Assembly (NCBI RefSeq): GCF_000018105.1
Contig: NC_009925.1
Coordinates: 780,001 to 812,000 of the forward strand
Source of the DNA: Acaryochloris marina MBIC11017
Lineage (GTDB): Bacteria > Cyanobacteriota > Cyanobacteriia > Thermosynechococcales > Thermosynechococcaceae
DNA length: 32,000 bases
Reading direction: 5' to 3'
Below are positions 6,962 to 26,026 of this stretch, piece by piece. Made by a program: the position numbers and the translations under genes. Each line of letters starts with the position of its first letter. Position 1 is the stretch's first letter. Below the pieces are notes generated by a model. That model made no database searches. It was not told the DNA's origin and worked only from the letters and a program-made list of their open reading frames with translations.

Positions 6962-9900
6962 ATGAGAACTCATCAATACGTTCATAAGAAACGAGCCGCC
7001 CAGTCTTCCTATAACCCTGTTCCTCGATCTTCTAAAGTTCAGTCTTCAGTGCAGCCTCCGGCAATTCAAGCCAAGTCGAATGAAGAGGGTTTAGCTGAAC
7101 ATGCTGAGCGGTTGAGAAAGTTCCAGCGGCTGGGTACTTCAATGATACAAATGGGTCCACCCAGACTCGGGAATGATGAGTCCAGTCCATTACACCCAAA
7201 ACCCTGGCTTCAACGGAAATTGACGCTTGGGCAGCCAGGAGATAAGTATGAACGAGAGGCAGATCGGATTGCATCTCAAGTAGTGCAAACCATAAATCCC
7301 CCTGCTTCAAAAGAAAACATTATTAGGCAGTCGATTCAGCGCGAGAACGACTTAGAAGGGGTAATGTCCGCGAAAGGCTTTCAAGCTGCTATCCAGCGAA
7401 AGCAAGCAATAGCAGGTGGAGAAGCATCATCGGATTTAGAGTCTGCTATCAATAAAGCGAGAGGGAGTGGACAACCATTGAATGCAGGGTTGCAACAGTC
7501 AATGGGTCAGGCGATGCGTGCAGATTTTAGTGGGGTAAGAGTACATACAGATACTCAGTCAGACCAGTTAAATCAATCGATTCAGGCTCAGGCATTTACG
7601 ACGGGGCAAGATGTTTTTTTTCGACAAGGGGCATATCAGCCTGAAAATCAAGCAGGGCAGGAGTTGATTGCCCATGAGTTGACCCATGTCATTCAGCAGA
7701 ATTCTGGAGCGGTGAGAAGGCAACGTCAGTTTAGAAAAAATGATGAACTGCTGCATGGTCAATTTGAGGCAAACGTTAAACCAATGCAGCTTCAACCCAA
7801 TGGTCAATCTACTGATCTCCAAAAGGTTACGCCTGAGCAGAGGAAAGGTCGCCTGGAAGACTTAAACAACATCGATCTGTCAGATGTACAAGTCCTACAG
7901 CAAAGGCAAGGGCGAATAAACCCCATAATGCAGACCCATTACCCTGCGGCAGAGGGAGAGGCCAAATTTATAGAGGCAAAAACAGACCTTATTCAAGGAT
8001 TTACCCCTTCTGATCGGCCCTTCTTAAAAACTAGCCCTGATATGGTGCAGATGGACCGTAAAGAAAAAGTCGATCTTCTCAACCTGACAGTCGGAGAATT
8101 CGAAACCCATCGGAAGGCTGAGCAGATGGACTGGGCCAACGTGAAGAAATTTACAAAAAAAGAACGCAACACCATCTGGCAAATTATCGACTGGCGGCTG
8201 AACGGCTTAGACCCATTCATACTCAAGGATGTCGTTGACAAAGGTAAAAATAGTATAAAAAACCTCCGTAATATGAAGGCCTATTGTGACGGACTCAATG
8301 GCGAACTTAATGGGCAGAAAACCGTTCGACTGGCACCACAGACTACATTGGAAAAAGCCATCTACTACGGACACTGGCTTCAAAAAATTCATGGTCTCCT
8401 TGGGAAACGAACCGAGCTTGTTGTACCGACGAATGTATTCACTCAGTTAGTTGACACTGATTCTGGCAAAGTTGCTGAGGCTTTCATCAAGTACTTCAAT
8501 GAGATGAATCCCAACCTACAAACCCCTTCGGGCAAAGAAATTACATCTTTCATCAAACTTATGCATGAAGAAAAAGCCAAGATCGGGGATTACAAGAACG
8601 TTCTAAAAGACATTCGAAACTTTCATAAGTTTCCCAAGGAATCGCTTGATAAGCTAAAGGCTGATCTGTCCGTAAAGGACAAACCACTAACTCTTATTTT
8701 GCATTCTCTTTACGATCATAATGGCGCTTTTATTCGCCATGAGCATGTTAACAAGGTCATCAAAAACGACAAAATTAAGGTTTATCTCATTGAGGGTCAT
8801 GCTATAGAGAAGGTAAAATCTCTCATCCGTGGTGGATTCCAAGAACTAGCGAAGAAGTATGGCCTTGACGGCAAAATCACTCAGGTTATGGCCGTTGGTC
8901 ACGGTGAATCTACCGAGATTGAATTCGCTGGTGGCGGTACAGAAGTTACTGAAGACGGGGGCAAGACGTCGATCGATCAGAAAGATGTAGTTCCGATAGA
9001 ATTAGAAGGAACAAACGCGCGTGTCTTTGCCCTGTTCTTTGAACAAATTTTCGCCAACATGGAAGAGAAGAAGGGGCTGAAGCCCAAGGTGTTGTTGCGT
9101 GCTTGCCTAAGTGCATCGAATGAGGTTGACGAGAATAAGCTTAAGGAGTTGATGAAAAAAGAGAACATCCTTGATCTTGATGCGGTGGTTGATACAAAAA
9201 CTGCCGAAAATCAGGAAAAGATTCGAGAAGGCATTAGGAAGTACATTGAGAAGCATGGAAGTCTTGCCACAAAATTGGGCGACCAAGCCAAAGGGAGAGC
9301 GGAGGTTCTTGGAGCCCAGTCCTCAATTACATCAGTTGATACAGGTGCAATCAAAGAAGATACTGGCGAGTTGGATTTTATTACACTAGCTGATCCTCAT
9401 GTTGCTGGCCCAAAACTCACTTATGTTCGTCATGGTAAAGAGCCTTCTGGTGCCCTTAGAGCAGTTATTGAGAGCTGGGCAAACGATCCAGTTACTTGCT
9501 TCGCAGAAATGCAGGACCGCATTGATACGGTTCTAGTTAACAGTCATGCAGAGTTCATTATTAACCTTCTCTACCATACATTACTAACCCAGTATAAGAG
9601 TGACATCCTTACAGCAAACAAGTTCACTAAAACAGCCCATGTGCTTATGGGTGTCTTAGAAGGTAAAGATGGCTGCCGCTCTGCCAGACTGGCTGCGGAT
9701 GATATGAGTAAAAAGCACCGTGACGCTTTTTATCCGTTGCTTATTACACATATTACACAGTTTGGGAATGATGCTAGGCCAAAACTTGTGATCTACCAGG
9801 ACTGGATGCTTCATAATGACACTAAGCGCAATAACTTTATGGCGATGCTGGGGATACCCGGCTGTACAAGAACCATAGCCGACAAATACCTTGATTTCGC

Positions 9901-10429
9901 ACTCATCAAGGACTCAGTTGAAACTCTCGTAAAAATGACGGCAGCTCCCATGAAGGCTCGGGTTTTGCTGGCACTATGTGGCTTGATTCGTCAGAACCCA
10001 ATCGAGTCTTGTAAAACCTTTCTTTTGACTCAAGTTAAAGGGGACAACTCCTTAAAGAAAAGCATTACTGATGAGTTAGATGGTTATTCAGTATCTAAGC
10101 TTCGTGACAAACTCGACTTAGAGGAAGAAATCGCGCAACCTGACTCAACCGCTGCCCATCCCAAAAATGTTGGTGGTGAAGGCGAATTTCACGTTAAGCC
10201 GATTAAAACAAAAGTTGAAAAAATAAAAAAAAGCACCCGTAAAAACCAGGCTAAATCACGCATTGAGCCTCGTCAGGATGCCAAAGTCGCGTTAACGCTA
10301 ACCCAAAAGAAGAACTACCATATTGTTGGTGAAGTCGTGAACACTGATGACACTAAAACGGGGTGGTATATGCTCAGGTTGAGTGCCGGGAAAATTGCCT
10401 ATATCGAGCAGAAGTATTTTAGCAATTAG
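6962..10429 (+). CDS. Large multidomain polymorphic-toxin-like protein: DUF4157 (HExxH 'PVC-metallopeptidase') prefix, ~900-aa unknown region containing a His/Cys clan-CD-like module, and an SH3b-like C-terminus
   Basis: 1155-aa ORF. DUF4157 hallmarks span about aa 85-246: LQRKLTLGQPGDKYEREADRIASQVV, then GQPLNAGLQQSMGQAMRADFSGVRVHTDTQSDQLNQSIQAQAFTTGQDVFFRQGAYQPENQAGQELIAHELTHVIQQ. The HELTH codons are at nt 7673-7687. No signal peptide is present. The C-terminus KNYHIVGEVVNTDDTKTGWYMLRLSAGKIAYIEQKYF resembles a bacterial SH3 domain. Confidence 0.85.
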   Translation: MRTHQYVHKKRAAQSSYNPVPRSSKVQSSVQPPAIQAKSNEEGLAEHAERLRKFQRLGTSMIQMGPPRLGNDESSPLHPKPWLQRKLTLGQPGDKYEREADRIASQVVQTINPPASKENIIRQSIQRENDLEGVMSAKGFQAAIQRKQAIAGGEASSDLESAINKARGSGQPLNAGLQQSMGQAMRADFSGVRVHTDTQSDQLNQSIQAQAFTTGQDVFFRQGAYQPENQAGQELIAHELTHVIQQNSGAVRRQRQFRKNDELLHGQFEANVKPMQLQPNGQSTDLQKVTPEQRKGRLEDLNNIDLSDVQVLQQRQGRINPIMQTHYPAAEGEAKFIEAKTDLIQGFTPSDRPFLKTSPDMVQMDRKEKVDLLNLTVGEFETHRKAEQMDWANVKKFTKKERNTIWQIIDWRLNGLDPFILKDVVDKGKNSIKNLRNMKAYCDGLNGELNGQKTVRLAPQTTLEKAIYYGHWLQKIHGLLGKRTELVVPTNVFTQLVDTDSGKVAEAFIKYFNEMNPNLQTPSGKEITSFIKLMHEEKAKIGDYKNVLKDIRNFHKFPKESLDKLKADLSVKDKPLTLILHSLYDHNGAFIRHEHVNKVIKNDKIKVYLIEGHAIEKVKSLIRGGFQELAKKYGLDGKITQVMAVGHGESTEIEFAGGGTEVTEDGGKTSIDQKDVVPIELEGTNARVFALFFEQIFANMEEKKGLKPKVLLRACLSASNEVDENKLKELMKKENILDLDAVVDTKTAENQEKIREGIRKYIEKHGSLATKLGDQAKGRAEVLGAQSSITSVDTGAIKEDTGELDFITLADPHVAGPKLTYVRHGKEPSGALRAVIESWANDPVTCFAEMQDRIDTVLVNSHAEFIINLLYHTLLTQYKSDILTANKFTKTAHVLMGVLEGKDGCRSARLAADDMSKKHRDAFYPLLITHITQFGNDARPKLVIYQDWMLHNDTKRNNFMAMLGIPGCTRTIADKYLDFALIKDSVETLVKMTAAPMKARVLLALCGLIRQNPIESCKTFLLTQVKGDNSLKKSITDELDGYSVSKLRDKLDLEEEIAQPDSTAAHPKNVGGEGEFHVKPIKTKVEKIKKSTRKNQAKSRIEPRQDAKVALTLTQKKNYHIVGEVVNTDDTKTGWYMLRLSAGKIAYIEQKYFSN

Positions 10430-10554: not shown

Positions 10555-11454
10555 ATGGAAATTACACTCGACCAGAAAACGACATGGCACCTAGGTGGAG
10601 AGGCTCATGTACTTCATCTCTTAAGGTTAGTTGCCCAAATCAATGATGAAAATTGGTCTGCTGTCAGCGTTGTGCTTGAATGTGCCCCTGTTATCGCTGC
10701 GAGAGGTGAAGAACTGAGCTGGTTTCACAACCGCCTGGAGAGTCGCCTTGATTGGCAAAATCGGCCATTTCTGGAAGATCTGCCTGTTCGGATGGAGATT
10801 GCATTGAGGCCCGAGTACTATCCTCGCTTGCCTTGTCCAAGTTCTGATGCAGTGCAACGTCTCACTGACCTATTTGTAATTGAGCCACCCCCTTCTCCTG
10901 AACTATTCGATGATGCGGTCTGGAATGCGATACAGCTCTGGCAAGAGTACCCTATCGATCCATCGATTGGTGGTGGTACGATGCGGGTTGGCTATCGAAC
11001 AGCGTTTTCTATGTTCACTGACGAGGTTGATCGACTTCGTCGCCGGGGCCCAGTCTCTCGTATTATCGTCGATGCGTTGATTGAGTCTGGTATTCCGATC
11101 TCTTGGATTGAGGAGGATCCGGTTTTTACTGTTACGCTCTATGCTGAAGACCGTGGCTATCTCTGTCGAATTCGTCCCAACGAGTCTTCTTCTGGGATAA
11201 CTGTCAGTGTGGAATGGATAGAGCAGCTCTCTGATGCTGGGGTCGCAAAACTTTCATCACATATTGCTGTAGCTGATACTGACCTCGTTTTCGGTTCCTT
11301 GACTCTAGTCGATGGGCGAATTCGCCTTGATAACCTAACCCTATTAGGGCCGTCTATTACGGAGGAAACGATTATCGAAACTTTGCGTGCTGCAGTATCA
11401 GCTCTCAATAGCAAGGTCAATGAGTGGTCAGAGTTAGATCTCACGGCGGGTTAA
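10555..11454 (+). CDS. Hypothetical protein; candidate immunity protein or chaperone for the upstream toxin-like protein (C-terminal half resembles the YbjN / type III secretion chaperone-like fold)
   Basis: 299-aa ORF, co-directional and 125 nt downstream of the 1155-aa gene. The C-terminal half (RIIVDALIESGIPISWIEEDPVFTVTLYAEDRGYLCRIRPNESSSGITVSVEWIEQL...SLTLVDGRIRLDNLTLL) has the alternating pattern I associate with YbjN/CesT-like proteins. This is a pattern impression only. Confidence 0.65.
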   Translation: MEITLDQKTTWHLGGEAHVLHLLRLVAQINDENWSAVSVVLECAPVIAARGEELSWFHNRLESRLDWQNRPFLEDLPVRMEIALRPEYYPRLPCPSSDAVQRLTDLFVIEPPPSPELFDDAVWNAIQLWQEYPIDPSIGGGTMRVGYRTAFSMFTDEVDRLRRRGPVSRIIVDALIESGIPISWIEEDPVFTVTLYAEDRGYLCRIRPNESSSGITVSVEWIEQLSDAGVAKLSSHIAVADTDLVFGSLTLVDGRIRLDNLTLLGPSITEETIIETLRAAVSALNSKVNEWSELDLTAG

Positions 11455-11461
11455 CCCAAGG

Positions 11462-11575
11462 AATCTGTCAAGACCGGTTAGCGGCTGTTTGAAGCGGCTG
11501 CAGGACAGACCACTGAGATCCGGGACCGGGCCATTCTCTATTAGGGTTCATGCCGGGATAGAGAAATTTTTTCTC
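11462..11575 (+). pseudogene. Short decayed remnant of a tyrosine-recombinase gene (copy B), also the left copy of a nested direct repeat
   Basis: The core 11488-11539 (tttgaagcggctgcaggacagaccactgagatccgggaccgggccattctct) matches 20246-20297 at 46/52 positions by my count. It translates as FEAAAGQTTEIRDRAILY*. RDRAIL is the start of recombinase box I. Flanking homology is weaker. Confidence 0.45.
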
Positions 11576-11600
11576 ACAGAATAGCTGTGAACTATATTTA

Positions 11601-13297
11601 GGGCTTGCTTCGGAAGTCTAAGTTCCAATATTTGCAGTGTATCCAAGTGTTGAGGGCCCTTGAGAAGTGCAAGGAAAATCATTCAAAATATTTAAAACCC
11701 TTGCACCTGCAACCCGATGTATCGCCGTCCATCCCCCGGTCAACTGTCCTTTGAGAACTTCTACTTGCCCTTTGGAGGGAAACTTTCAGGAGAGAATCGC
11801 TGGGTCAAACTAGCCGAGTTGATTCCTTGGGAGAGCTTTGAGTCAGAATATGCAGACCAATTCAGTCAGACCATGGGGGCACCTGCCAAACCCTTTCGTG
11901 TGGCCTTAGGGACCTTAATCATCAAAGAGAAACTGGGTATATCCGACGCAGAGACCGTAGAACAGATTCGAGAGAACCCCTACTTGCAGTACTTTCTGGG
12001 GTTTAGTGAATATCGAGAGAGTGCTCCGTTTGATGCCTCCATGCTGGTTCACTTTCGCCAACGGTTGAATCTAGAGCTGCTAGCTCAAGTCAATGACGCA
12101 GTCGTGGACTCTGTGCTGGCATCCGAGGGGTCTCCTGTGGCGATGTCCCCTGAGTCATCTCCTCCCTCTGACGATGATGAAGATGAGCCTCCTGCCCCTC
12201 CCAACCAGGGCCAATTGTTGATAGATGCGACCTGTGCACCAGCCGATATTCGCTATCCGACAGACTTGGATTTGCTCAATGATGCCCGCAAAGCAAGCGA
12301 AGCCATCCTCGATGCTTTATATGCTCAAGTCATGCTGTCCCTCAAGTGCAAACCTCGCACCTACCGCCAGAAGGCCCGCAAAGCCTATCTGGCCATTGCC
12401 AAAAAACGTCAACCGAGCCGCAAGCTGATTCGTAAAGGGATTCGTCAGCAGTTGGGCTATGTGCGTCGCAATCTAGCCCATATTGATGGGTTGATAACAT
12501 TGGGGGCTTCCCTATCCCAATTGTCCCGGCGGCAGTACCGTCTGTTGCTGGTGATTCATGAAGTCTTTCGACAGCAAGAATGGATGTATCAACAGTCAGT
12601 ACGTCGAGTGGACGACCGGATTGTCAGTATGAGTCAGCCTCATGTCCGACCGATGGTCCGAGGCAAAGCTGGAACACCCGTTGAGTTTGGAGCCAAGCTA
12701 TCCCTCAGTTGTGTGCGTGGATGTGTGTTTCTGGAGCGCTTGAGTTGGGATGCGTTCAATGAATCCCAGCATCTTCAACATCAAGTGGAAGCCTTTCGTC
12801 GTCGCTTTGGCCATTATCCTTTCTCAGTCCATGCTGACCAAATCTATCGGACTCGGGCTAATCGACGATGGTGTAAAGCTCGGGGGATTCGCTTGAGTGG
12901 ACCGCCGTTAGGAAGACCTCAACAAGACCCACAAGTACAGACCCAACTCAAGCAACAAGCGTGTGAGGATGAAAAGGTGAGGGTCCAGATTGAGGGTAAG
13001 TTTGGGCAGGCCAAGCGACGGTTTGGCTTGAATCGAGTGATGGCGAAGTTAGCGGATACGGCTGCCAGTGCGATTGCTATCACGTTCTTGGTCATGAATC
13101 TGGAGCGGTGGCTCAGCCACTTTTTATCGTTCATTTTTGGGGTGGGATTGCTGGTTTTGGAAAGCGTTATGGAGCTGTCAGGACTTCCTTGGGGCTTTGC
13201 TAGGGCCAGTCAAAGGATATGGCTCTGGCCGTCACAAATGGGTTGCTTGTACGATTTGATGCATGGAATTTGCTCAATTTACTTTCTCAGCAAACCC
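11601..13297 (+). mobile_element. IS5/IS1182-like insertion sequence (~1.7 kb)
   Basis: Terminal inverted repeats are IRL 11601-11617 gggcttgcttcggaagt and the reverse complement of IRR 13281-13297, gggtttgctgagaaagt (13/17 matches). TATTTA directly abuts both ends (11595-11600 and 13298-13303) as a perfect direct repeat, consistent with a 6-bp target-site duplication. One DDE transposase ORF fills the element. Confidence 0.75.
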
Positions 13298-13336
13298 TAT
13301 TTAGCAGTACTTTTCAGACTTCGAATTTACAAGTAA
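11717..13336 (+). CDS. DDE transposase, IS5/IS1182-like (N-terminal DUF772-type domain plus DDE_Tnp_1-type catalytic domain)
   Basis: N-terminus SFENFYLPFGGKLSGENRWVKLAELIPWESFE. Candidate DDE residues lie in LLIDATCAPADIRYPTD, VHADQIYRT and VQIEGKFGQAKRRFGLNRVMAKL. The reading frame crosses the IRR, and its stop (13334-13336) lies about 39 nt outside the inferred element end. Confidence 0.9.
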   Translation: MYRRPSPGQLSFENFYLPFGGKLSGENRWVKLAELIPWESFESEYADQFSQTMGAPAKPFRVALGTLIIKEKLGISDAETVEQIRENPYLQYFLGFSEYRESAPFDASMLVHFRQRLNLELLAQVNDAVVDSVLASEGSPVAMSPESSPPSDDDEDEPPAPPNQGQLLIDATCAPADIRYPTDLDLLNDARKASEAILDALYAQVMLSLKCKPRTYRQKARKAYLAIAKKRQPSRKLIRKGIRQQLGYVRRNLAHIDGLITLGASLSQLSRRQYRLLLVIHEVFRQQEWMYQQSVRRVDDRIVSMSQPHVRPMVRGKAGTPVEFGAKLSLSCVRGCVFLERLSWDAFNESQHLQHQVEAFRRRFGHYPFSVHADQIYRTRANRRWCKARGIRLSGPPLGRPQQDPQVQTQLKQQACEDEKVRVQIEGKFGQAKRRFGLNRVMAKLADTAASAIAITFLVMNLERWLSHFLSFIFGVGLLVLESVMELSGLPWGFARASQRIWLWPSQMGCLYDLMHGICSIYFLSKPYLAVLFRLRIYK

Positions 13337-13713
13337 TTGATAGTCCATTCTTTTGGGGGAATGAATATCCATAAGGGTTCCCCGGCCAAATAAAATTACA
13401 GCATTTGAATATGGGAAAGTCAGTGTCACTCGTATTGGCATGATGGCCATTTGCAAGTGTGAAATTTAGTTTTTAACTAGGTTCTAGCGATTTGATCATA
13501 GATAGCCCCCCGGCCATTATGAGCCCTAAGCTGAGCAAGATAACGAGAAGAGGGGGGCATCAGAGACTATTCTTGAATTATGCAAACCAGGAGTGCAGGC
13601 GACCATTAGAATCGCTGAAAACAGTGGAACTCAATGGTCAATGGCAACAGCTCTGATTTCTGCAAACCGCTGCGGAGTATGAAAACCCAGAACAATTTAC
13701 AGATGGGATATTA

Positions 13714-14934
13714 TTAACTCTTAACTGTTTTGCATTGCAATGCGACCAGTAAATCAGAGCCCATTTTTTCTGCAATACTACGCCCTGGGCACTCACGCCG
13801 CTTCGCTTCACCTACTGAGTTAAAGCTGAGTGCTGCCAATAGGTTGTCTCGATGAGGATTGAAGTCTAAGGGGTTCTCAAAGACCGTACTGTCTAGATTA
13901 GCCAACCCGATGTTTGCGGAGAACAGCGTACCCTTGGGAAACTTACGTTTTCGGCCATTGATGGTCACCTCTGTTTCTGTCTGGGCAATGGTATTGATGT
14001 TATTCACTGGCGAGTGTCGACGAGCTGTTTCTAAAACTACTCGCAACACTTCATGACGATTATCTACATCGATCTCCAGATCGCGTGGAACCTTGGCTAT
14101 TAAGGACCGGAGTAAACTCTCACTACCTAGACATCCTGCAATTGCGATCGCTTCCAGTAGCAAAGTACTCAGTTCTGTTCGACTTAAATCATTTTCAGTG
14201 GTTGGAACATACCTACTCATAACAGGAGAGTTCTCAATCAGGTTAAGGGCGATCCCTTCTAATCGTTTAACTTCCTGCAACTTATTAGCAGATGGGGCTA
14301 AAGGTTTCACCCTTGAGATCAGCAATGATTCCTTTGGTTTTGAGGAGAAGAATAGCGTTTTTAGAGATGATAGTTGCTGTGGAGAAAGTTTGACTTCTAA
14401 TAGCACTAACATGATGTATTGGATGACAGTGCGTTGAATGTCATCGCTAATGTCATCTAAAGCCGGAGGATTTCCATGTTGATTAGCAATGGTGGCTAAC
14501 TGATTCAACAGATCTTTAGCTTCTTGGGACTCAGTATTATCAAAGGCTGGTTTAAAAACGACCTCTAAAACGGCTGATCTTGCTTTTTTATGAGTAGTAT
14601 CACCCTTTACTTCTTTATCAGACAGAAAAAGCAAAAAATTCTTAGAGAATCGATCAGGAATGCAGCGAAAACGGCCAATATAAGGTTCTCTTTGTTGGGG
14701 CTCTGCAATGATTTTTGCAGCAAGATTATATTCACCCACAATAATTCTGCCTAAAGCCGCAAAGTTCTGGCCAAAAAGCTGTTGTCTTTTACCTAAAAAT
14801 TCTTGAGGAGTAACAATACTATAACTAATAACATCCACTACATAGAAAAACCTCATAAGCATTGTAGTTAGGATGTTAGGGTGCCGCAATAGACAAATTT
14901 GGATACGGTTTGAGAAACGAATTAATAAACTCAT
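13714..14934 (-). CDS. Divergent cytochrome P450-like haem-thiolate protein (candidate fatty-acid hydroperoxide-converting enzyme)
   Basis: ExxR motif in VVLETARRHSPV and a PERF-like FNPHRD. The Cys-ligand loop is SFNSVGEAKRRECPGRSIA, which is FxxG...CxG with 4 extra residues compared with the canonical FGGSNRRCLG of the P450 at 24662..26026. The I-helix position reads IAGCLGSES and lacks the acid-alcohol (E/D-T) pair. The gene is AT-rich and lies 230 nt downstream of, and co-directional with, the lipoxygenase gene. The start codon is uncertain (M1, M24 or M26). Confidence 0.6.
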   Translation of the reverse strand: MSLLIRFSNRIQICLLRHPNILTTMLMRFFYVVDVISYSIVTPQEFLGKRQQLFGQNFAALGRIIVGEYNLAAKIIAEPQQREPYIGRFRCIPDRFSKNFLLFLSDKEVKGDTTHKKARSAVLEVVFKPAFDNTESQEAKDLLNQLATIANQHGNPPALDDISDDIQRTVIQYIMLVLLEVKLSPQQLSSLKTLFFSSKPKESLLISRVKPLAPSANKLQEVKRLEGIALNLIENSPVMSRYVPTTENDLSRTELSTLLLEAIAIAGCLGSESLLRSLIAKVPRDLEIDVDNRHEVLRVVLETARRHSPVNNINTIAQTETEVTINGRKRKFPKGTLFSANIGLANLDSTVFENPLDFNPHRDNLLAALSFNSVGEAKRRECPGRSIAEKMGSDLLVALQCKTVKS

Positions 14935-15164
14935 AGCTGCCCCATTAATTTATCAACAGAATTGCAAAACATGGTAGTCCTAGAGAAGTAATGACAGGAG
15001 AGGAACATCCTTTATGGCTAGAACTTCTAGGATTCAAACTCTTGAAAAGAGCTTAGCGAAAGGAACAAATTCTGGATAAGCCATTTTGGGAAATGGCCTG
15101 ATTGGTCGGCGTTACCCTTTTTTGGCCAGATCTGAACAAAGCCCTTGATTGGAGAAAGTCAAAC

Positions 15165-17183
15165 TCAGATGTTAATACTCTGAGGGATTTTATTAGGATG
15201 TAGGAAATCATAAAAGGTTGGGCGAACACTGTTCCGTTCATCAATGATGATGCCAATGGCATCTAACTGTTGCTGAAATGCTTTGAGTAGAGGTTGCACC
15301 CTAGTATCCGTAAAGTGCTCTTCTCCATATTCCCCTAATAGGGTGTAGTAAAGAGAACCCAACAAATAGGTCATATCCATCTGGGTCTCTGCCTGTTTCA
15401 GGGAAGGAAGAAGGTTGAAATAGTCTTGAGTGGTTGCCTTTGTTGACTTTGGCGCGGGTCGATATCCCGCTAAAGGCAAGTTGGGGATATAGGTCATATA
15501 AGTCGATTGGGAGAAGTTCACGGCTGCATGTTGGGCACTCCCTGTAAAAATAATGAGCGTCACCATATCTGCCAAGTAAGCTTTAGTGCGCAAGCTAGGT
15601 TGCTCCTGATCCGATGCGGTTTCCCCAATTTCTGTCATGCGCCCTCCGTCTTGAGCGACCATTTCTGCTAACCAAGCTTGGAGTTCGGTGTCCTCTACCA
15701 CATCCTGATCGCTGAGGTAATACAAGTCTAGATAGCTCTCAACCCAATCGTGAATCGCATTCCAAACGAGTAGTGCATCATCTCGATAGGGATAGTCAGG
15801 AAGCTGATCCACATTATCGACCCCCCGTCTGGAGAGTGTGGCGGGTAGCATCGAATCATTAAAACCGTAGGGGAACCCTTGTACGGCTTTAACGCTGAGC
15901 TCTTTAGAAGATTCAATAGTGCCAGACATCACTGAATCCACGGTACCTCCATCATTAACAAGGCCAGAAATGGCTGCATTATTAATAAACAATGTTCCTT
16001 CAAAATGAGGACGCAATAAGGCGCTGAGGGGATGATTAGGGGCCAGTTGACGATAGGTAGCCACTACAATGGGCTCGATCAATAAGTGGGTCCGACCGAG
16101 ATGAGAAATGAGCTCATGGTAATTGCCATCAGCGATTTGAACGATGGTTTTTGCCATCAGCCAAGCCCATTGCTCGGACTGGGGGCTACCCTCAGGGGGT
16201 GGAGTGAAAATAGGATTATCAGAGCCTGGCTGCTGCTGGCACTGAATGGCTACGGCTGTGAGGGAGCCGCTTCCTTCCGCAGGTACTGCAAACAGGGCGA
16301 GGGGAGCATAGACATATTTTTGAGCATCCGGAAAAGTGCCCGGTTCTAATAGGTTCAACACTGCATAATCAGTGATATAAAGTCGCCCCTCTGCTCCAGC
16401 CTTTTGGAGAGAATCAGCAGTTCCCATCACGGCCTGATATTGATCGTTAGTGACAGGGAAGTGGTCTGGTAATCTCTTGCATTGTTCTAGAACTAAAGGG
16501 TTCGCTCCCGCAACTCGCTGGGCGACAAAGGCTCGATCTGTCCAGAACTGTTGGCTAATACAAGGCAAATAAATAATCTGAAACAGATCGTTATAGGCTT
16601 GAAAGAGTTGGCTGTAGTCTGACAAACTGTCTTGGGCTTGCTTAGCCTGCATAGCTAAAGCTTGATGGTCGAGCTTCTGCTGCTCTTGAGCATGGTCTCG
16701 GGGATCTTTGACCTCAGAGATTAATGTTTCCAGTAACGGCTGGTGGATATCGTTCACTTTGGCCGAGGGGGTTTGGGAACTGTTTTGCTCAATGGAGGGT
16801 GGTTTGCCATCTTGCAAGCGTTGAACCAACCGAATAATTGGCAGAACTTTGGCTAACAAAAACTTCAAAAAGCCAGCACGTTTAGGGTTATTCAAGAAAC
16901 GGGTGACACGGGTAAGCCAGGCAAATCGGCGGAGTTTTCGGACAGAACCTGTTTCATTAACGTCTTGTAAAGCTTGGTTAGCATCTATTCTCAGCAGCAG
17001 AGATAAGGCATCTTGAAGCCAAGGAAATTTGCCAAGGGATTGATCTTGTGGGGGCACTTTCTCGGCCATTGCCCCGCCATTAGGGAGGTAAGTGTAGTTA
17101 TAGCGATAGTCTCGACGAGCAGCCACTAAAGCCGTTTGCCGTTGAACAGGATTGGAATCATTTTGAGGTAGAGAGATATTCAT
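15165..17183 (-). CDS. Lipoxygenase (bacterial type, no PLAT domain)
   Basis: Iron-ligand motifs WLMAKTIVQIADGNYHELISHLGRTHLLIEP (HxxxxH) and GSAQHAAVNFSQSTY (H...N). The C-terminus IPQSINI ends in the Ile that supplies the carboxylate ligand. The track ORF begins at a TTG at 17204; the first ATG is at 17183 (MNISLPQ). Confidence 0.95.
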   Translation of the reverse strand: MNISLPQNDSNPVQRQTALVAARRDYRYNYTYLPNGGAMAEKVPPQDQSLGKFPWLQDALSLLLRIDANQALQDVNETGSVRKLRRFAWLTRVTRFLNNPKRAGFLKFLLAKVLPIIRLVQRLQDGKPPSIEQNSSQTPSAKVNDIHQPLLETLISEVKDPRDHAQEQQKLDHQALAMQAKQAQDSLSDYSQLFQAYNDLFQIIYLPCISQQFWTDRAFVAQRVAGANPLVLEQCKRLPDHFPVTNDQYQAVMGTADSLQKAGAEGRLYITDYAVLNLLEPGTFPDAQKYVYAPLALFAVPAEGSGSLTAVAIQCQQQPGSDNPIFTPPPEGSPQSEQWAWLMAKTIVQIADGNYHELISHLGRTHLLIEPIVVATYRQLAPNHPLSALLRPHFEGTLFINNAAISGLVNDGGTVDSVMSGTIESSKELSVKAVQGFPYGFNDSMLPATLSRRGVDNVDQLPDYPYRDDALLVWNAIHDWVESYLDLYYLSDQDVVEDTELQAWLAEMVAQDGGRMTEIGETASDQEQPSLRTKAYLADMVTLIIFTGSAQHAAVNFSQSTYMTYIPNLPLAGYRPAPKSTKATTQDYFNLLPSLKQAETQMDMTYLLGSLYYTLLGEYGEEHFTDTRVQPLLKAFQQQLDAIGIIIDERNSVRPTFYDFLHPNKIPQSINI

Positions 17184-17610
17184 AAGACCAAATGTGACTA
17201 ACAACAGCGTGAGGGGAAAAGGTTTAGGGGAAAACGATGAAAGCTACTTCAAAAAGGTAGAAACTAAAAAAAAATGGCGAAAAGTAATTAATTTCTTCTG
17301 ATTTTGTCCATTACTGGGGTGTATCCAGTTTTTATAGGAGATGCATGGGCAGTAGGAGAGTGAATTCAGGTAATTGTGATTCTCTACAGCAGGAATGTAA
17401 ATAGGTAGATAAGGGGACCGTCTACCACAGAACTAAGCGTACTTTTACTGCACTAAAAATGGCGTGATCTATATCAAAGTTTCCCTGAATAATTTTCTAA
17501 TTTATTGACTTTATAATTCTGGAGGTAACTGACCAAGAAAATTATTAGGAGTGGTTATATAAGTTGATTAAAGTTGCAATATTAATTTCTACATTTTTCC
17601 TTTCCTGTTA

Positions 17611-17865
17611 TTAAGCAGCCTGGAATATTTCTGCGATTTCACTAACACCGCTGATGAATTTTTTTCTTTTTTCAGATAGAGACACGAATTCTGCGATATG
17701 ACTGCGAGATCTCAAAACGTGACTCACCTCATCTACGGCTTTGCAGAAAAGGCACTTCCGGGGGTTAGTACTCCACTGGATATTGTCTGGTGGAGTACTA
17801 ACCCGTACTCTTGCCTCTTGACTACTGATAGACACTGACAAAGAGGGTTGCACCGGGTTGATCAT
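17611..17865 (-). CDS. Hypothetical small protein (84 aa), questionable
   Basis: Its only ATG start overlaps the 3' end of the lysozyme/LDT gene by 44 nt in another frame. The one notable feature is a CxxC pair (CLFCK). No recognisable family. Confidence 0.3.
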   Translation of the reverse strand: MINPVQPSLSVSISSQEARVRVSTPPDNIQWSTNPRKCLFCKAVDEVSHVLRSRSHIAEFVSLSEKRKKFISGVSEIAEIFQAA

Positions 17866-19327
17866 ACAAAGGCACCACTTTGTCTCTTAAATCTTGGTTA
17901 TGCATTCTAATGCAGCCTAGGGTGGAGAAAAGAGCTTGCTTTGGTGCCCAAGCTCCTGGCCATCCGCAACCGCTGCCGCCGCCGTGGAGCATAATGCCTG
18001 CCCGACCCAGGTTGGCTTCTTGGTTTTCGAGTTCAACTAAATCGAGACTATACCAGCCATAAGACATGCGATCGCGGGTATAGGCAGAACTTTCACCCGC
18101 TTGCTCATAGTCGCGATAAATTTGCCCACATTTGTAAAGACCGGCGGGGGTATCCCCATGACGGCCAAAGTAATTGTCCTCAAACTGACCACGACAGAGA
18201 CAGGTCAATTCCCACATTAGCGTGCCGCTATAGTCGTAACACTTGATCTTGCCAACGGCATCATTGGCCACCAGATGGTAGTCTCCGGGCTTAAAGCCAT
18301 GGGCATCCGGATGGGACTTGGGACCTTTCATCCCTGCAATAATATTGGCTTGGCGAGGACCAGCCGATGGGGTGGGTTGCGAGACGGTTATCGTTGGTTC
18401 AAAACCTACTACCCTCGGTGGGTTTGTTTTGAGTCGCTGTTCAATGGGTTCGCAATCCTGGGCCGTTTGAATTTCCTGGGCAGCGGCGGCACAGGCGGTG
18501 GTCGGTGCTTCGCCACACCAGACTTTGGCCTCGGCATATCGACGGCGACCCAGCCCCACTTCCACATTTTCGCTGGGGTTGCGATACATCATCAGGGTGC
18601 CGGGAACCGCCTGCCAATCTTTGTCTTTTAAGTTGCGGGTGATGGTTCTATGGTTCGGTGATCCATAAAAATCAGCACCATTGTTATAGGCAAAGCTGGT
18701 CAGTGCGGCTCGTTGTAGATCAGTCATGTCGTCCCAATAAGGGATGGTCGATTGCAGCTTGAGCCAAAAATCTTTGTGGCAAATATAGTCGTACAGGTCA
18801 TCTGCTTCAGCTTGGGTGATGATATCTCCCATTTGGATGGCTGACCCATTTTTATAGTAGGTACTGCCCCAACCGATGGTGACGGGTAAGCCCCCACTGC
18901 CAGCCCTTGGATCCGGGTAAGCTTGGATTCGCCCGTCCGGTAATTTCCGTTGACAGCCTTCGTAAAAGTGGTTGAGTTGGGCTACTTCCGGCGGTAATAA
19001 CGGAGCAGAGGGAGTCTCTGGTTGAGAGGGAGTAGAAGCTGGAGCCAGGGCAGAAACGGGCTGCTGTTCCCATGCATCTTCTGGAATATCCCATGAGATG
19101 GGATTGATATACCGTTTGACACCCGTTTCAATGGTTGGGTAATGGTCATGCCAGGTATAAGGCCCCGCCAAGATAATCTCAGCCAACTGTGAATTGACAG
19201 TAGACACTTTGATAACGCCTAAGATTCCCCCCTCATAGACTTTTGCGAGTTGATTTAATTTTTGAAGGTGGGGTTGGTGTGGTAGGGGTGCCAGGAGTGT
19301 ATTCTTTTTCGCTGTGATAAATGGCAT
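17822..19327 (-). CDS. Fusion protein: unknown N-domain, Pro-rich linker, GH24 (T4/lambda-type) lysozyme domain, YkuD-type L,D-transpeptidase catalytic domain
   Basis: GH24 catalytic region: NHFYEGCQRKLPDGRIQAYPDPRAGSGGLPVTIGWGSTYY (Glu, Asp, Thr triad pattern) followed by LTSFAYNNG. YkuD region: HGDTPAGLY...GIMLHGGG...STLGCIRMHNQDL. The catalytic Cys codon is the complement of 17912-17914. No signal peptide is present. Confidence 0.9.
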   Translation of the reverse strand: MPFITAKKNTLLAPLPHQPHLQKLNQLAKVYEGGILGVIKVSTVNSQLAEIILAGPYTWHDHYPTIETGVKRYINPISWDIPEDAWEQQPVSALAPASTPSQPETPSAPLLPPEVAQLNHFYEGCQRKLPDGRIQAYPDPRAGSGGLPVTIGWGSTYYKNGSAIQMGDIITQAEADDLYDYICHKDFWLKLQSTIPYWDDMTDLQRAALTSFAYNNGADFYGSPNHRTITRNLKDKDWQAVPGTLMMYRNPSENVEVGLGRRRYAEAKVWCGEAPTTACAAAAQEIQTAQDCEPIEQRLKTNPPRVVGFEPTITVSQPTPSAGPRQANIIAGMKGPKSHPDAHGFKPGDYHLVANDAVGKIKCYDYSGTLMWELTCLCRGQFEDNYFGRHGDTPAGLYKCGQIYRDYEQAGESSAYTRDRMSYGWYSLDLVELENQEANLGRAGIMLHGGGSGCGWPGAWAPKQALFSTLGCIRMHNQDLRDKVVPLYDQPGATLFVSVYQ

Positions 19328-20418: not shown

Positions 20419-20657
20419 AGGTAGCCACCCAGCTCAATCTTTGCTGGATGGCTTCTGATCTAGACGCGTTGCTTGTTCTAAAGCCGCTTTTTCTTTGGCT
20501 CGTTGGTCATAGGGGTGGAGCTGTTCTAACGTCCACCCCGTCAATAAGCTCAAATTATCGAGGGTCACTCCCCGCATCAGCATATCGATGCACCAAGTTT
20601 GTTGGGCCTGTTCCAGATGGGGAGGGTGACCTGCTAAGGTGGTCATCCCTTCCGTCC
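20342..20657. repeat. Right copy of the ~320-bp diverged direct repeat (crp 3' fragment, spacer, genuine 3' end of the TetR-family gene)
   Basis: See the left copy (6560-6883). Homology ends at about 6883 / 20657 (tccgtcc, then the sequences diverge). Confidence 0.85.
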
Positions 20658-21645
20658 AGCTTTTCCACCGATCAGCCAGTGTTGTCGGCGTCAGGGGCTG
20701 TTGCTGATCATCCACAAACATTGTAGGTTCATCATCTTTGCGAGATTTTAGCCATTTGGTCAGGGGATTGGAAGTATAGGAGCCAACACGTTTCCCCATG
20801 ACCCACTGATTGACGGCTACCTGGCGGCTGGCCTGGATTTGCAGCAGATGCTGTTGATTATTGCTGATCTGTTGCGATCGCAATAACCCGATCACTTCGG
20901 GTGATGATAAACCTGCCCCAAATAAAACATAGGCCAGAGCATGATCTTGGGTACTCTGTTTCTTGGCTTGTCGGAGAATAAGATGAACGGTTTCCGCAGG
21001 CAAATCAGCCACGGTTGTGGGCTGTGGGGGAGAATCTCTGAAAGTGTCACTTGCAATACTGCCAAACAGGATCATCTGCACCGCATGCTCTAAAAAGTCG
21101 TCTTGGTGATGCCATAGCTGATGGTATTCACTGGTGAATTCGATAACGGCATACCCGAGCAGCAAGCATTCCAATAAGCTTGCCAGTTTTTCCGTTGAGA
21201 ACTGGGGGGTTAACTGCCGCTCAGCCATAAAGGATTCTAGATACTGAGCCATATATTGGGTGATTTCTGTCATCCGCTTTCCCAAGGCCAGTCGATTGTC
21301 GGCGGGGTATTGGTTGGCTTCTCCTACTAGAGATCGAATTAAATCAGGCACTTGCTCTAATGCATGCAAGCAATAACTTGCATATTCTTGAAAGGCTTGC
21401 TCCGTTGATGCAGCGGACTGATTTTGACGGTTCAGGGCCTGTCCCAGGCTCTGAAAAGCCGTTGACTCTTCTAAGACCCCCAATAAAAGGCCATGTTTAC
21501 TGCCGAAATGCCGAAACAGCGTCACTTCGTTCACTTCGGCGGCTTCAGCAATTTGGCGGGTGGTCGTTCCACTAATTCCTTGAGTAATAAAGAGCTGAAG
21601 AGCCGACTGAATCAAGCGTTGGCGAGTTGATGACTGAGAAGACAT
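20434..21645 (-). CDS. TetR/AcrR-family regulator fused to a C-terminal catalytically degenerate tyrosine-recombinase-like domain
   Basis: N-terminal TetR HTH: RQRLIQSALQLFITQGISGTTTRQIAEAAEVNEVTLFRHFGSKHGLL. The C-terminal ~200 aa follow the recombinase catalytic-domain pattern. The box I-like segment DHALAYVLFGAGLSSPEVIGLL has Ser where the catalytic Arg should be. The box II-like segment LEQAQQTWCIDMLMRGVTLDNLSLLTGWTLEQLHPY has Q..Q in place of H..R, GW in place of GH, and keeps the Tyr position. Confidence 0.9.
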   Translation of the reverse strand: MSSQSSTRQRLIQSALQLFITQGISGTTTRQIAEAAEVNEVTLFRHFGSKHGLLLGVLEESTAFQSLGQALNRQNQSAASTEQAFQEYASYCLHALEQVPDLIRSLVGEANQYPADNRLALGKRMTEITQYMAQYLESFMAERQLTPQFSTEKLASLLECLLLGYAVIEFTSEYHQLWHHQDDFLEHAVQMILFGSIASDTFRDSPPQPTTVADLPAETVHLILRQAKKQSTQDHALAYVLFGAGLSSPEVIGLLRSQQISNNQQHLLQIQASRQVAVNQWVMGKRVGSYTSNPLTKWLKSRKDDEPTMFVDDQQQPLTPTTLADRWKSWTEGMTTLAGHPPHLEQAQQTWCIDMLMRGVTLDNLSLLTGWTLEQLHPYDQRAKEKAALEQATRLDQKPSSKD

Positions 21646-21718: not shown

Positions 21719-21807
21719 CTATTACTTTACCCAGTATTCAAACAAAAAGCGAGGCCCACCTCTGCAGATATGGGCTAGCGTTGTTCATCTTTTTTCATAG
21801 GACTGTT

Positions 21808-22665
21808 ATGACTACCAACCCTGTCGTCACTGCCTCCGCAGGCAGACCTGCCCTGAGCTGGATCAATGTTGGCTTTTTTGGTGCATTTCACCTACTAGCT
21901 ATCAGCTTAGCCCCCCATTATTTCTCATGGTCAGCCCTAGGGGTCGCCCTATTCTTACATTGGCTGCTAGGAGGGATTGGCATCTGCTTGGGGTATCATC
22001 GTCTCCTCAGTCACCGGAGTTTCCGCGTGCCCAAGGTATTGGAATATGCGATCGCAACCCTAGGTTCCCTCGCTATACAGGGTGGTCCTATCTTCTGGGT
22101 GAGTGGTCACCGTCAACACCATGCTCATACCGAGCATGTCAACGATGATCCCTACTCTGCCCAGCGAGGCTTTTGGTGGAGTCATATTCTCTGGATTTTT
22201 TATCCTCGTCCTGAATATTTTGATGCCAAACATTACCGCAAAAATGCCCCCGACTTGGCCCGCCAACCCTTTTATCGTTGGTTAGATCGAAATTTCCTGA
22301 TGCTCCAAATCCCCTTGGCTGCTGTGCTATATGCCTTAGGGGGATGGTCCTTCGTGGTCTACGGTATTTTTGTCCGGGCCGTCATTCTTTGGCATTCCAC
22401 CTGGCTAGTGAATTCTGCCTCTCATATGTGGGGATATCGCACCTTTGAATCCGATGATGGCGCTCAAAACCTGTGGTGGGTTTCTCTATTGACTTATGGT
22501 GAAGGCTGGCATAACAACCATCACTCCTATCCTCATGTGGCCAAGTCTGGTTACCGTTGGTGGGAGATCGATTTGACCTGGTGGGCCATTTGTGCCCTCA
22601 AGCAAATGGGATTGGCCAAGAAAATTGTGACGTACCCTAAATCCCTTCAGTATGTGAGGAAGTAG
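21808..22665 (+). CDS. desC: Acyl-lipid/acyl-CoA delta-9 fatty acid desaturase
   Basis: Three histidine boxes, HRLLSH, HRQHHAH and HNNHHSYP, plus four hydrophobic segments. The track ORF starts at a TTG at 21781; the first ATG is at 21808 (MTTNPVV). Confidence 0.93.
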   Translation: MTTNPVVTASAGRPALSWINVGFFGAFHLLAISLAPHYFSWSALGVALFLHWLLGGIGICLGYHRLLSHRSFRVPKVLEYAIATLGSLAIQGGPIFWVSGHRQHHAHTEHVNDDPYSAQRGFWWSHILWIFYPRPEYFDAKHYRKNAPDLARQPFYRWLDRNFLMLQIPLAAVLYALGGWSFVVYGIFVRAVILWHSTWLVNSASHMWGYRTFESDDGAQNLWWVSLLTYGEGWHNNHHSYPHVAKSGYRWWEIDLTWWAICALKQMGLAKKIVTYPKSLQYVRK

Positions 22666-24661: not shown

Positions 24662-26026
24662 ATGCAAACGATAGCAGCTCAACCCTCCACTCACAAATTA
24701 CCCGAGGGTCCCTCTTCTTCTGGATTGTGGCAAATGTTGCAATGGATTGGACGGCCCCTTGGGTTTATGGAAGCCTGTCGGCAACGGTATGGGGATTTAT
24801 TTACCTTACAGTTGGGGCAATTGGGCCAAATTGTTTTTTGTAGCAATCCCGTCGGCATTGAAGAGATTCTGACGGCAGATCCTAAAAAGATGGATGCAGG
24901 TTGCAATAACTCTGTATTGTTGCCTTTGCTCGGTAATGCATCCGTCATCCTCTTAGATGGCGAATCCCATCAACGACAGCGACAGCTTTTGATGCCCCCA
25001 TTTCACGGAGAACGGATGCGGGCCTATGGCTCATCCATCACTCAGATTACGAAAGATATTGCTTCACCTTGGCAAGTCAACCACCCCTTTGACGTGCGAG
25101 AGGCCATGCAGGCTATTTCCCTCAATGTCATCGTCAAAACGGTGTTTGGCGTGTCGAACCCTGAACGATACCAAGCTTTGCAGGCACTATTGCCTCAATT
25201 TCTGGACTTAACCGGATCACCGGCTGGTGCGAGTTTGCTGTTTCTACGAGGATTACAGAAGGATTGGGGGGCTTGGAGTCCTTGGGGGCGGTTTCTACGG
25301 GTGAGATCGCAACTCGATCACCTCCTCTATCAGCAGATGGACGAACATCGAAGTCAATCCGAAATGGGATCAGACATCCTCTCCCTCATGCTGGCGGCCA
25401 CAGATGAAGTGGGCAATCCCATGACCGATATAGAGCTGCGAGATGAGTTAGTTACCCTGCTGCTAGCAGGGCACGAGACCACCGCTTCAGCATTGACCTG
25501 GGCATTGTATTGGATTCATTTCCTCCCAGATGTGAAGGAAAAACTGATCGCGGAATTAGCCACTGCTGACCTCAATGACGCCAAAAGCATCCAGCGTTTA
25601 CCCTACCTGAATGCAGTGTGCTCTGAAACCTTGAGGATTTATCCGATCGCCCCGATCACCTCTCCTCGAACAACGAGAATGCCCCTATCCCTAATGGGAC
25701 ATAACCTTCCCGTCGGAACCACTGTAGCCCCCTGTATCTATCTCACCCATCGCAGTCCTGAACTCTATCCGAATCCTCAAGCCTTTCAGCCAGAGCGCTT
25801 CCTGGAACGTCAATTTTCCCCCTACGAATATCTGCCATTTGGGGGTAGCAATCGCCGTTGTTTGGGGATGACCTTCGCCCTATTCGAGATGAAACTGGTC
25901 CTCTCGACACTCCTGACTGGCTATCAATTCCAGCTAGAGCAGCCTCAACCCTTAAAACCCGTGCGTAGAGGAGTGACCTTAGCACCGCCCTCTCACTTCA
26001 GAATGATCTTGACCCAGCGACGTTAA
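24662..26026 (+). CDS. Cytochrome P450 (CYP110-like, canonical)
   Basis: I-helix LLAGHETTA, ExxR in ETLRIYP, PERF in FQPERF, and the haem loop FGGSNRRCLGMTFAL. The track ORF starts at 24482. The ATG at 24662 (MQTIAAQPSTHKLPEGP...RYGDLFTL) gives the usual ~454-aa P450 N-terminus. Confidence 0.92.
   Translation: MQTIAAQPSTHKLPEGPSSSGLWQMLQWIGRPLGFMEACRQRYGDLFTLQLGQLGQIVFCSNPVGIEEILTADPKKMDAGCNNSVLLPLLGNASVILLDGESHQRQRQLLMPPFHGERMRAYGSSITQITKDIASPWQVNHPFDVREAMQAISLNVIVKTVFGVSNPERYQALQALLPQFLDLTGSPAGASLLFLRGLQKDWGAWSPWGRFLRVRSQLDHLLYQQMDEHRSQSEMGSDILSLMLAATDEVGNPMTDIELRDELVTLLLAGHETTASALTWALYWIHFLPDVKEKLIAELATADLNDAKSIQRLPYLNAVCSETLRIYPIAPITSPRTTRMPLSLMGHNLPVGTTVAPCIYLTHRSPELYPNPQAFQPERFLERQFSPYEYLPFGGSNRRCLGMTFALFEMKLVLSTLLTGYQFQLEQPQPLKPVRRGVTLAPPSHFRMILTQRR

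Follow-up and report, generated by a model that had tools for sequence, protein, structure and literature searches.

In the genome of Acaryochloris marina MBIC11017, a lipoxygenase (LOX) gene is followed by a gene for a small protein of 406 aa that resembles cytochrome P450. LOX pathways need a second enzyme that converts the reactive hydroperoxides into signals, defence aldehydes or hormones, and the question raised by this locus is whether the P450-like protein could be such an enzyme. We analysed the 32,000-nt stretch that carries both genes (contig NC_009925.1, positions 780,001 to 812,000; hereafter the window, whose own numbering is used for its features). We consider it fairly probable that the 406-aa protein is a LOX-coupled, hydroperoxide-transforming haem-thiolate enzyme, analogous to CYP74 and to the catalase-allene oxide synthase (AOS)-LOX systems and a member of neither.

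In the proposed scheme, LOX would turn a polyunsaturated fatty acid into a hydroperoxide, which the P450-like protein would take up at its ferric haem. There the O-O bond would be cleaved homolytically, and the radical or cation would be rearranged into a product of the allene oxide, epoxy-alcohol, hemiacetal/aldehyde or divinyl-ether type. This second reaction would need neither O2 nor NAD(P)H nor a redox partner. We infer both the hydroperoxide substrate and the O2-independent chemistry by analogy; ferric CYP5, CYP8A and CYP74 need no partner to cleave fatty-acid peroxides directly (PMC9214053, PMC10813956).

The lipoxygenase and the P450-like protein

The LOX was found to be complete, as had been claimed from the letters of the window alone in an earlier sequence-only reading. 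Its open reading frame (ORF) spans 15165..17204 if counted from a TTG codon, and the ATG at 17183 gives a protein of 672 aa, which is identical (100%, full length) to the NCBI entry "lipoxygenase family protein" of Acaryochloris marina. It matched Pfam PF00305 with an expectation value (E) of 8e-69, and its closest entries in the Protein Data Bank (PDB) were bacterial and cyanobacterial LOXs (E = 1e-113). All iron ligands of PF00305, namely His/His/His/Asn and the C-terminal Ile, are present in the motifs HELISH..H, HAAVNF and SINI (Table 1).

The 406-aa protein is labelled "cytochrome P450", and nothing more, by NCBI. NCBIfam holds no curated family for it, every match lying far under its cut-off. 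The P450 family PF00067 recognized it with E = 4e-10 and 39.5 bits (cut-off 22.8), the aligned part being residues 298-362 only. An AlphaFold2 model made from 23 homologues had a mean predicted local distance difference test score (pLDDT) of 88.4 and a predicted template modelling score of 0.89; its sole segment with pLDDT below 50, residues 373-378, is an insertion in the Cys-ligand loop. Comparison of this model with the PDB by Foldseek gave 1602 matches at E<=0.001. The best 50 of the 1602 were all P450s, and their template modelling (TM) scores were only 0.5-0.64, so that none of them is close. On the model, the protein is predicted to fold as a P450, and neither Pfam nor the best 50 Foldseek matches included a catalase. 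The sequence-only reading had described the LOX partner as P450-type, not catalase-related, and had made its proposal depend on the P450 fold and on recurrent linkage to LOX, the two points that could be addressed computationally; the results above agree with it on the nature of the partner and on the fold.

The gene is under purifying selection, since the ratio of nonsynonymous to synonymous substitution (dN/dS) against Acaryochloris orthologues was 0.13-0.17. A 114-aa ORF runs antisense within it (14093-14437, plus strand) and is most likely a chance ORF.

Both the ExxR motif and the Cys ligand are retained: E302/R305 and F371...G375...R380-x-C382-P-G384 were invariant in 23/23 aligned sequences. 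In the Cys loop, F371-NSVGEAKRRE-C382-PGR, the distance from Phe to Cys is 11 residues, compared with 7 in the ordinary P450 encoded at 24662-26026 (FGGSNRRC), which agrees with the insertion of four residues noticed previously. The absence of an acid-alcohol pair from the I-helix was likewise borne out. The corresponding positions are occupied by C268-L269 or L269-G270, depending on the register, and E272-S273, which lies 2-3 residues beyond them, is not conserved among family members. Across the 23 members, which range from cyanobacteria to diatoms, the alignment showed no conserved acid-alcohol pair and, in the groove of the I-helix, no acidic or hydroxyl residue that is conserved. The loss of the pair had been taken as a hallmark of P450s that rearrange hydroperoxides; by itself it is not diagnostic, as CypX/CYP134A1 also lacks the I-helix Thr.

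A family-specific motif, PVNN(I/V)N, comes shortly after ExxR, where strand beta1-4 begins, in the position of substrate recognition site 5 (SRS5). This site lines the distal pocket in other P450s such as P450BM3 and P450cam. It is speculation that the Asn residues of the motif are candidate substitutes for the catalytic Asn of CYP74; the motif is not retained in the second subfamily described below.

Table 1 Location and basis of the annotated features in the window
Feature	Position	Strand	Basis
P450-like haem-thiolate protein, 406 aa, WP_238549158.1	13714..14934	minus	PF00067, AlphaFold2 fold, exact NCBI match
I-helix centre IAIAGCLGSES, residues 263-273; A266 and G270 invariant	14116..14148	minus	alignment
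K-helix ExxR = ETAR 302-305 (E302/R305), then family-specific PVNNIN 309-314	13993..14031	minus	alignment, AlphaFold2 model
Cys-ligand loop FNSVGEAKRRECPGR, residues 371-385, 4 residues longer than canonical	13780..13824	minus	translation, alignment, AlphaFold2
Spacer of 230 nt between LOX and P450-like genes	14935..15164	minus	coordinates
LOX gene, 672 aa, bacterial type without PLAT domain	15165..17183	minus	PF00305, PDB relatives, NCBI identity
LOX iron-ligand motif HELISHLGRTH (His356, His361), residues 356-366	16086..16118	minus	translation, alignment to solved LOX
LOX iron-ligand motif HAAVNF (His552, Asn556), residues 552-557	15513..15530	minus	translation
LOX C-terminal Ile672 codon (end ...SINI)	15168-15170	minus	translation
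Insertion sequence (IS) transposase, DDE_Tnp_1_2 + DUF772, 539 aa	11717..13336	plus	Pfam; 377 nt past the 3' end of the P450-like gene

Family distribution and linkage to lipoxygenase

The strongest evidence for a functional tie between the P450-like family and LOX comes from natural fusion proteins. In the 1085-aa protein P0177, residues 5-399 form a P450-like domain that is 35% identical to the window protein and contains ExxR and RMCPGR; the C-terminal part is a complete bacterial-type LOX, whose first residues match the N-terminal motif of the window LOX. P0177 is encoded by a single ORF; the context is bacterial, with genes for LysR and TauE as neighbours, and the GC content is 70%. A word-index homologue search with P0177 returned no match except P0177. 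In green algae, the 1130-aa protein P0205 of Tetraselmis striata consists of P450-like, PLAT and LOX domains, and KAK3275241.1 of Cymbomonas tetramitiformis (P0300) has the same layout. This layout was also observed in two further entries, P0284 and P0310.

The two proteins are also encoded side by side. In the window, the LOX gene precedes the P450-like gene on the minus strand, and the gap is exactly the 230 nt reported in the sequence-only reading. The spacer contained no terminator-like hairpin on the minus strand, and its promoter-like matches were not above shuffled expectation. Since no terminator was found, co-transcription of the two genes is possible.

Adjacency was found in approximately 8 independent bacterial lineages and in four gene arrangements, so that the linkage proposed for this locus recurs both as gene pairs and, in a bacterium and in green algae, as natural fusions. 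The order LOX then P450 was seen in two cyanobacterial loci (L001 and L011; P450-like proteins 73-74% identical to that of the window), in L032 (39%) and in a Leptolyngbyaceae locus of the second subfamily (L020; 26%). Four Methylococcales loci (L003, L004, L012 and L031; 41-42%) have the order PelG, P450, LOX, Lipase_3. The P450-like gene is convergent with LOX in L002 (37%), and in L025 (49%) it is convergent with one small gene between. Although the LOX of L032 shares 72% identity with that of the Methylococcales loci, the two genes stand in the opposite order. Between L002 and L003, identity was 57.5% for the P450-like proteins and 33% for the LOXs; between the window and L001, the values were 73.5% and 50%. 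Because sequence divergence is much greater among the partner LOXs than among the P450-like proteins, the association appears to have been re-made, or kept, with non-orthologous LOXs. According to PMC6612559, LOX genes are present in <0.5% of sequenced bacterial species. In view of this rarity, we judge chance adjacency at the observed frequency to be implausible.

The Lipase_3 gene of the Methylococcales loci lies after the P450-like and LOX genes (10291-11155 in L003, 10286-11149 in L004). Such a locus would hold a complete route from lipid to oxylipin, through lipase, LOX and P450.

The size of the family was estimated by an exhaustive HMMER search with the family profile over 1.84 billion protein cluster representatives. 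The profile matched 764 proteins at E<=1e-3, 238 at <=1e-10 and 92 at <=1e-30. Because the matches are so few, the 406-aa protein belongs to a small, isolated P450 clade and not to the fringe of a large P450 family. Members were found, in part by a scan of genome collections based on an alignment of 8 bacterial sequences, in cyanobacteria (Acaryochloris, Moorena and others) and, among other bacteria, in Methylococcales, Thermoanaerobaculia, Myxococcota and Verrucomicrobiota metagenome-assembled genomes (MAGs). Green algae have family members too, and among diatoms they occur in Nitzschia inconspicua (KAG7371567.1) and in Bacillariaceae MAGs. Some sequences form a second subfamily, whose identity to the window protein is 25-28%. 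Its I-helix reads IAALQGPLHL and its Cys loop FHSVGDRSAGRICPGK, and it was found in Okeania, Leptolyngbyaceae and Xenococcaceae. The Nitzschia protein (P0186) has 1589 aa, with the P450-like domain at 340-745, and Pfam detected no other domain in it; this entry may have arisen from merged gene models or may carry novel flanking domains. A literature search, which covered few subscription journals, found no account of this P450 family or of P450-LOX fusions, and none of a cyanobacterial LOX partner of the P450 type.

Several observations weigh against a LOX-coupled role. A LOX neighbour was present in only about 40-45% of the bacterial lineages examined. No LOX lies near the P450-like gene in the Acaryochloris-like loci L009, L010, L023 and L029 (83-89% identical), in L030 (71%) and L024 (65%), in the high-GC loci L013, L014, L037 and L038, or in seven loci of the second subfamily (L015-L019, L021 and L022), which come from Okeania and other cyanobacteria; several of the contigs concerned are short. 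Inspection of the large neighbours in L013, L014 and L015 with Pfam revealed no cryptic dioxygenase, and a histidine kinase, a MopE-like protein, Rpe, HlyD and GlyQ were found instead. The unfused eukaryotic members do not stand beside LOX, which is unsurprising in eukaryotes. As for the protein itself, the canonical Phe, Arg-x-Cys-x-Gly and ExxR are kept as in ordinary monooxygenases, O2-using P450s such as CypX/CYP134A1 lack the acid-alcohol pair as well, and in the hhalign alignment, whose confidence in this region is moderate, the catalytic Asn321 of AtAOS is matched by the invariant Ala266.

In the second subfamily, the gene of L015 adjoins glyQ and no LOX is present within 6 kb, whereas a link to LOX exists in the related L020 and in the Tetraselmis fusion. 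The second subfamily may rely on a LOX acting in trans or may have a different substrate.

The retained motifs would also fit a conventional O2-activating P450 monooxygenase that is served by a ferredoxin encoded elsewhere and by an unusual or substrate-assisted proton relay, and that hydroxylates or epoxidises fatty acids or LOX-derived hydroxy-fatty acids. Among solved structures, the nearest relatives are indeed ordinary bacterial P450s. The best by sequence is CypX/CYP134A1, a pulcherriminic acid synthase (single-sequence E = 0.0017; profile E = 2e-10, residues 249-390), which shares the missing Thr; BioI, CYP120A1 and CYP51 follow by fold. Linkage to LOX is likewise compatible with a second oxygenation step. 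However, no ferredoxin or reductase was found in any examined locus or fusion, a direct LOX fusion that has no reductase domain speaks for a self-sufficient reaction with the peroxide, and the I-helix groove lacks a conserved acidic or hydroxyl residue throughout the family. We thus regard a monooxygenase as unlikely.

Origin of the pair in A. marina

The sequence-only reading had suggested that the pairing is recent, on the basis of a strong difference in composition between the two genes. The contrast is real, as whole-gene GC content was 47.5% for LOX (45.5% at third codon positions) and 41.3% for the P450-like gene (36.4%), the mean of the window being 47.3%, and the P450-like gene has the lowest value among the 16 genes measured in the window. 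It had been overstated, however: lines with the cited 53% and 30% GC exist but are extremes, the 60-nt lines ranging from 33 to 63% in LOX and from 27 to 55% in the P450-like gene.

Genomes of close relatives also point to a recent event. In three to four related Acaryochloris genomes, the orthologue of the P450-like gene has no LOX gene in front of it, and two related Acaryochloris contigs stop within ~200 nt past the P450-like gene. The MAG IP29b_bin.148 contains an orthologous LOX (81% identical) without a P450-like neighbour, the P450-like gene being on another contig. Synonymous divergence (dS) from this MAG (L009/L026) was 0.38 for the P450-like gene and ~2.6, which is saturated, for LOX. 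Because both values refer to the same MAG, the two genes have had different histories. Together with the low GC content, the contig breaks and an IS transposase gene 377 nt away, these results suggest that a transfer or rearrangement recently put the P450-like gene behind LOX in A. marina MBIC11017, so that the earlier suggestion of a recent pairing holds up.

A composite transposon, or IS repeats around the P450-like gene, was looked for and not found. No IS terminal or flanking repeats were detected within 11000-18000, where only short repeats at chance level occur.

The same observations, namely the IS transposase, the unlinked orthologues of both genes, the dS gap and the low GC content, raise the possibility that the adjacency is incidental, an IS-mediated rearrangement having dropped the P450-like gene beside LOX, with an unrelated role in this strain. 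We judge this highly improbable. The same family stands beside LOX or is fused to it in many unrelated lineages; for that reason a chance landing on the same strand behind one of a handful of LOX genes is unlikely, and selection for clustering is the simpler explanation.

Other genes of the window were also inspected. Directly upstream of LOX and on the same strand, a 501-aa protein (17822-19327) carries a phage-lysozyme domain and a weak L,D-transpeptidase (YkuD) match. At 3-9 kb upstream of LOX lie a TetR-family regulator (20434-21645, minus strand), a fatty-acid desaturase (21781-22665, plus strand) and the canonical full-length P450 at 24662-26026 (PF00067, E = 4e-76). The desaturase could be a source of LOX substrate. 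Farther away, a 1155-aa protein at 6962-10429 has the eCIS core domain PF13699 (E = 2e-31) as its sole Pfam match, which suggests a cargo or toxin related to contractile injection systems.

Wider meaning and comparison with known systems

Haem partners of LOX are already known as a kind, and what would be new here is a P450-type partner for LOX hydroperoxides in this family. The partners used for comparison are of three kinds. Plants, some animals and a few proteobacteria have P450s of the CYP74 clan, corals and some cyanobacteria have mini-catalases, and fungi have P450 domains fused to a different type of dioxygenase. If our interpretation is true, the family would represent a fourth, unrelated P450 lineage, and the P450 fold would have been recruited convergently for peroxide chemistry. 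The family would provide ready-made self-sufficient LOX-P450 biocatalysts, for example the 1085-aa bacterial fusion P0177, and candidate genes for missing oxylipin steps in cyanobacteria, green algae and diatoms.

More tentatively, we put forward the possibility of an independently evolved hydroperoxide-converting P450 clade with operons and P450-LOX fusions in bacteria and prasinophyte/chlorodendrophyte algae, whose diatom members in Nitzschia inconspicua and Bacillariaceae might be the missing post-LOX enzymes, epoxy-alcohol synthase (EAS) or hydroperoxide lyase (HPL), of the oxylipin and polyunsaturated-aldehyde pathways. Diatom oxylipins are ecologically important in grazer defence and bloom dynamics, and their downstream enzymes are an acknowledged gap. 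According to a 2024 review, CYP74-like enzymes were lost in diatoms and the enzyme forming epoxy-alcohols there is still to be identified (PMC10864609); the diatom family members are for this reason concrete candidates.

As the P450-like family shares several features with CYP74, we considered that it might belong to the CYP74 clan as a genuine, though very distant, member, descended from a hydroperoxide-converting ancestor shared with plant AOS and HPL. Both have the P450 fold, lack the I-helix acid-alcohol pair, have a lengthened Cys loop and are coupled to LOX; CYP74 enzymes work directly after LOX without redox partners, as the window protein would by inference. By hhalign, the family profile aligned with AtAOS (the query being identical to PDB 2rch over residues 24-491) over 280 columns with a probability of 90.8%, E = 1.2e-6 and 19% identity. 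In long-loop members (P0014, Methylococcales and diatoms), the distance from the aromatic residue to Cys is 15-16, near or equal to the 16 of CYP74, and the insertion amounts to +8 or +9 in the Methylococcales and diatom members. The CYP74 haem-binding loop has a nine-residue insertion (PMC10813956).

Direct comparisons nevertheless speak against membership. The ordinary P450 of the window scored better than AtAOS against the same profile (probability 94.4%, E = 8.8e-8). No CYP74 chain was retrieved by phmmer from the PDB at E<=10 or appeared among the best 60 matches of the profile search, and guayule AOS (3dan) ranked only 28th in Foldseek with a TM score of 0.58. The family has Ala266 in place of the catalytic I-helix Asn321, and no conserved I-helix Asn was found anywhere in its alignment; the canonical Phe, R-x-C-P-G-R and ExxR are kept, and the insertion in the window protein is +4 (distance 11), not +9. 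These searches do not support CYP74-clan membership, which we consider very unlikely, and by sequence comparison the family appears no closer to CYP74 than to ordinary P450s. The CYP74-like hallmarks claimed from the window alone hold as an analogy, though not as an affinity to CYP74, whose catalytic Asn is absent. Because the family would be a lineage separate from CYP74, P450s would have been adapted to this task independently. We know of no CYP74 enzyme fused to LOX.

CYP5164 and CYP50918, the EAS and hydroperoxide bicyclases of brown algae and Plasmodiophora, were found as CYP74 relatives (PMC10813956), whereas the present family showed no affinity to CYP74 in the comparisons above. A search for CYP5164 among the mid-range eukaryote-like matches of the family profile yielded only transcripts and one Verrucomicrobiota MAG.

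CypX/CYP134A1 resembles the window protein as a small bacterial P450 without the I-helix Thr. It differs in its low similarity (~17% identity, TM ~0.5-0.6), in being an O2- and redox-partner-dependent cyclodipeptide oxidase, in the normal length of its Cys loop and in having no LOX association.

The catalase-AOS-LOX systems of corals and cyanobacteria (Plexaura homomalla, A. marina and Anabaena) share with the systems described here a haem protein that stands beside LOX or is fused to its N-terminus, as in P0177 and P0205; there the haem protein converts the hydroperoxide in situ, as the P450-like protein would here. A. marina itself has a catalase-type system (Gao et al.). Theirs is a Tyr-ligated mini-catalase, whereas the partner here is predicted to be a Cys-ligated P450 fold, and because of this difference the evolutionary origin is not the same. 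Finally, the fungal dioxygenase (DOX)-P450 fusions (linoleate diol synthases, DOX-AOS and DOX-EAS; PMC13049297) likewise combine a fatty-acid dioxygenase with a self-sufficient hydroperoxide-rearranging P450. In those fusions an N-terminal haem peroxidase/cyclooxygenase-like dioxygenase is joined to a C-terminal P450, whereas here an N-terminal P450 is joined to a non-haem-iron LOX.

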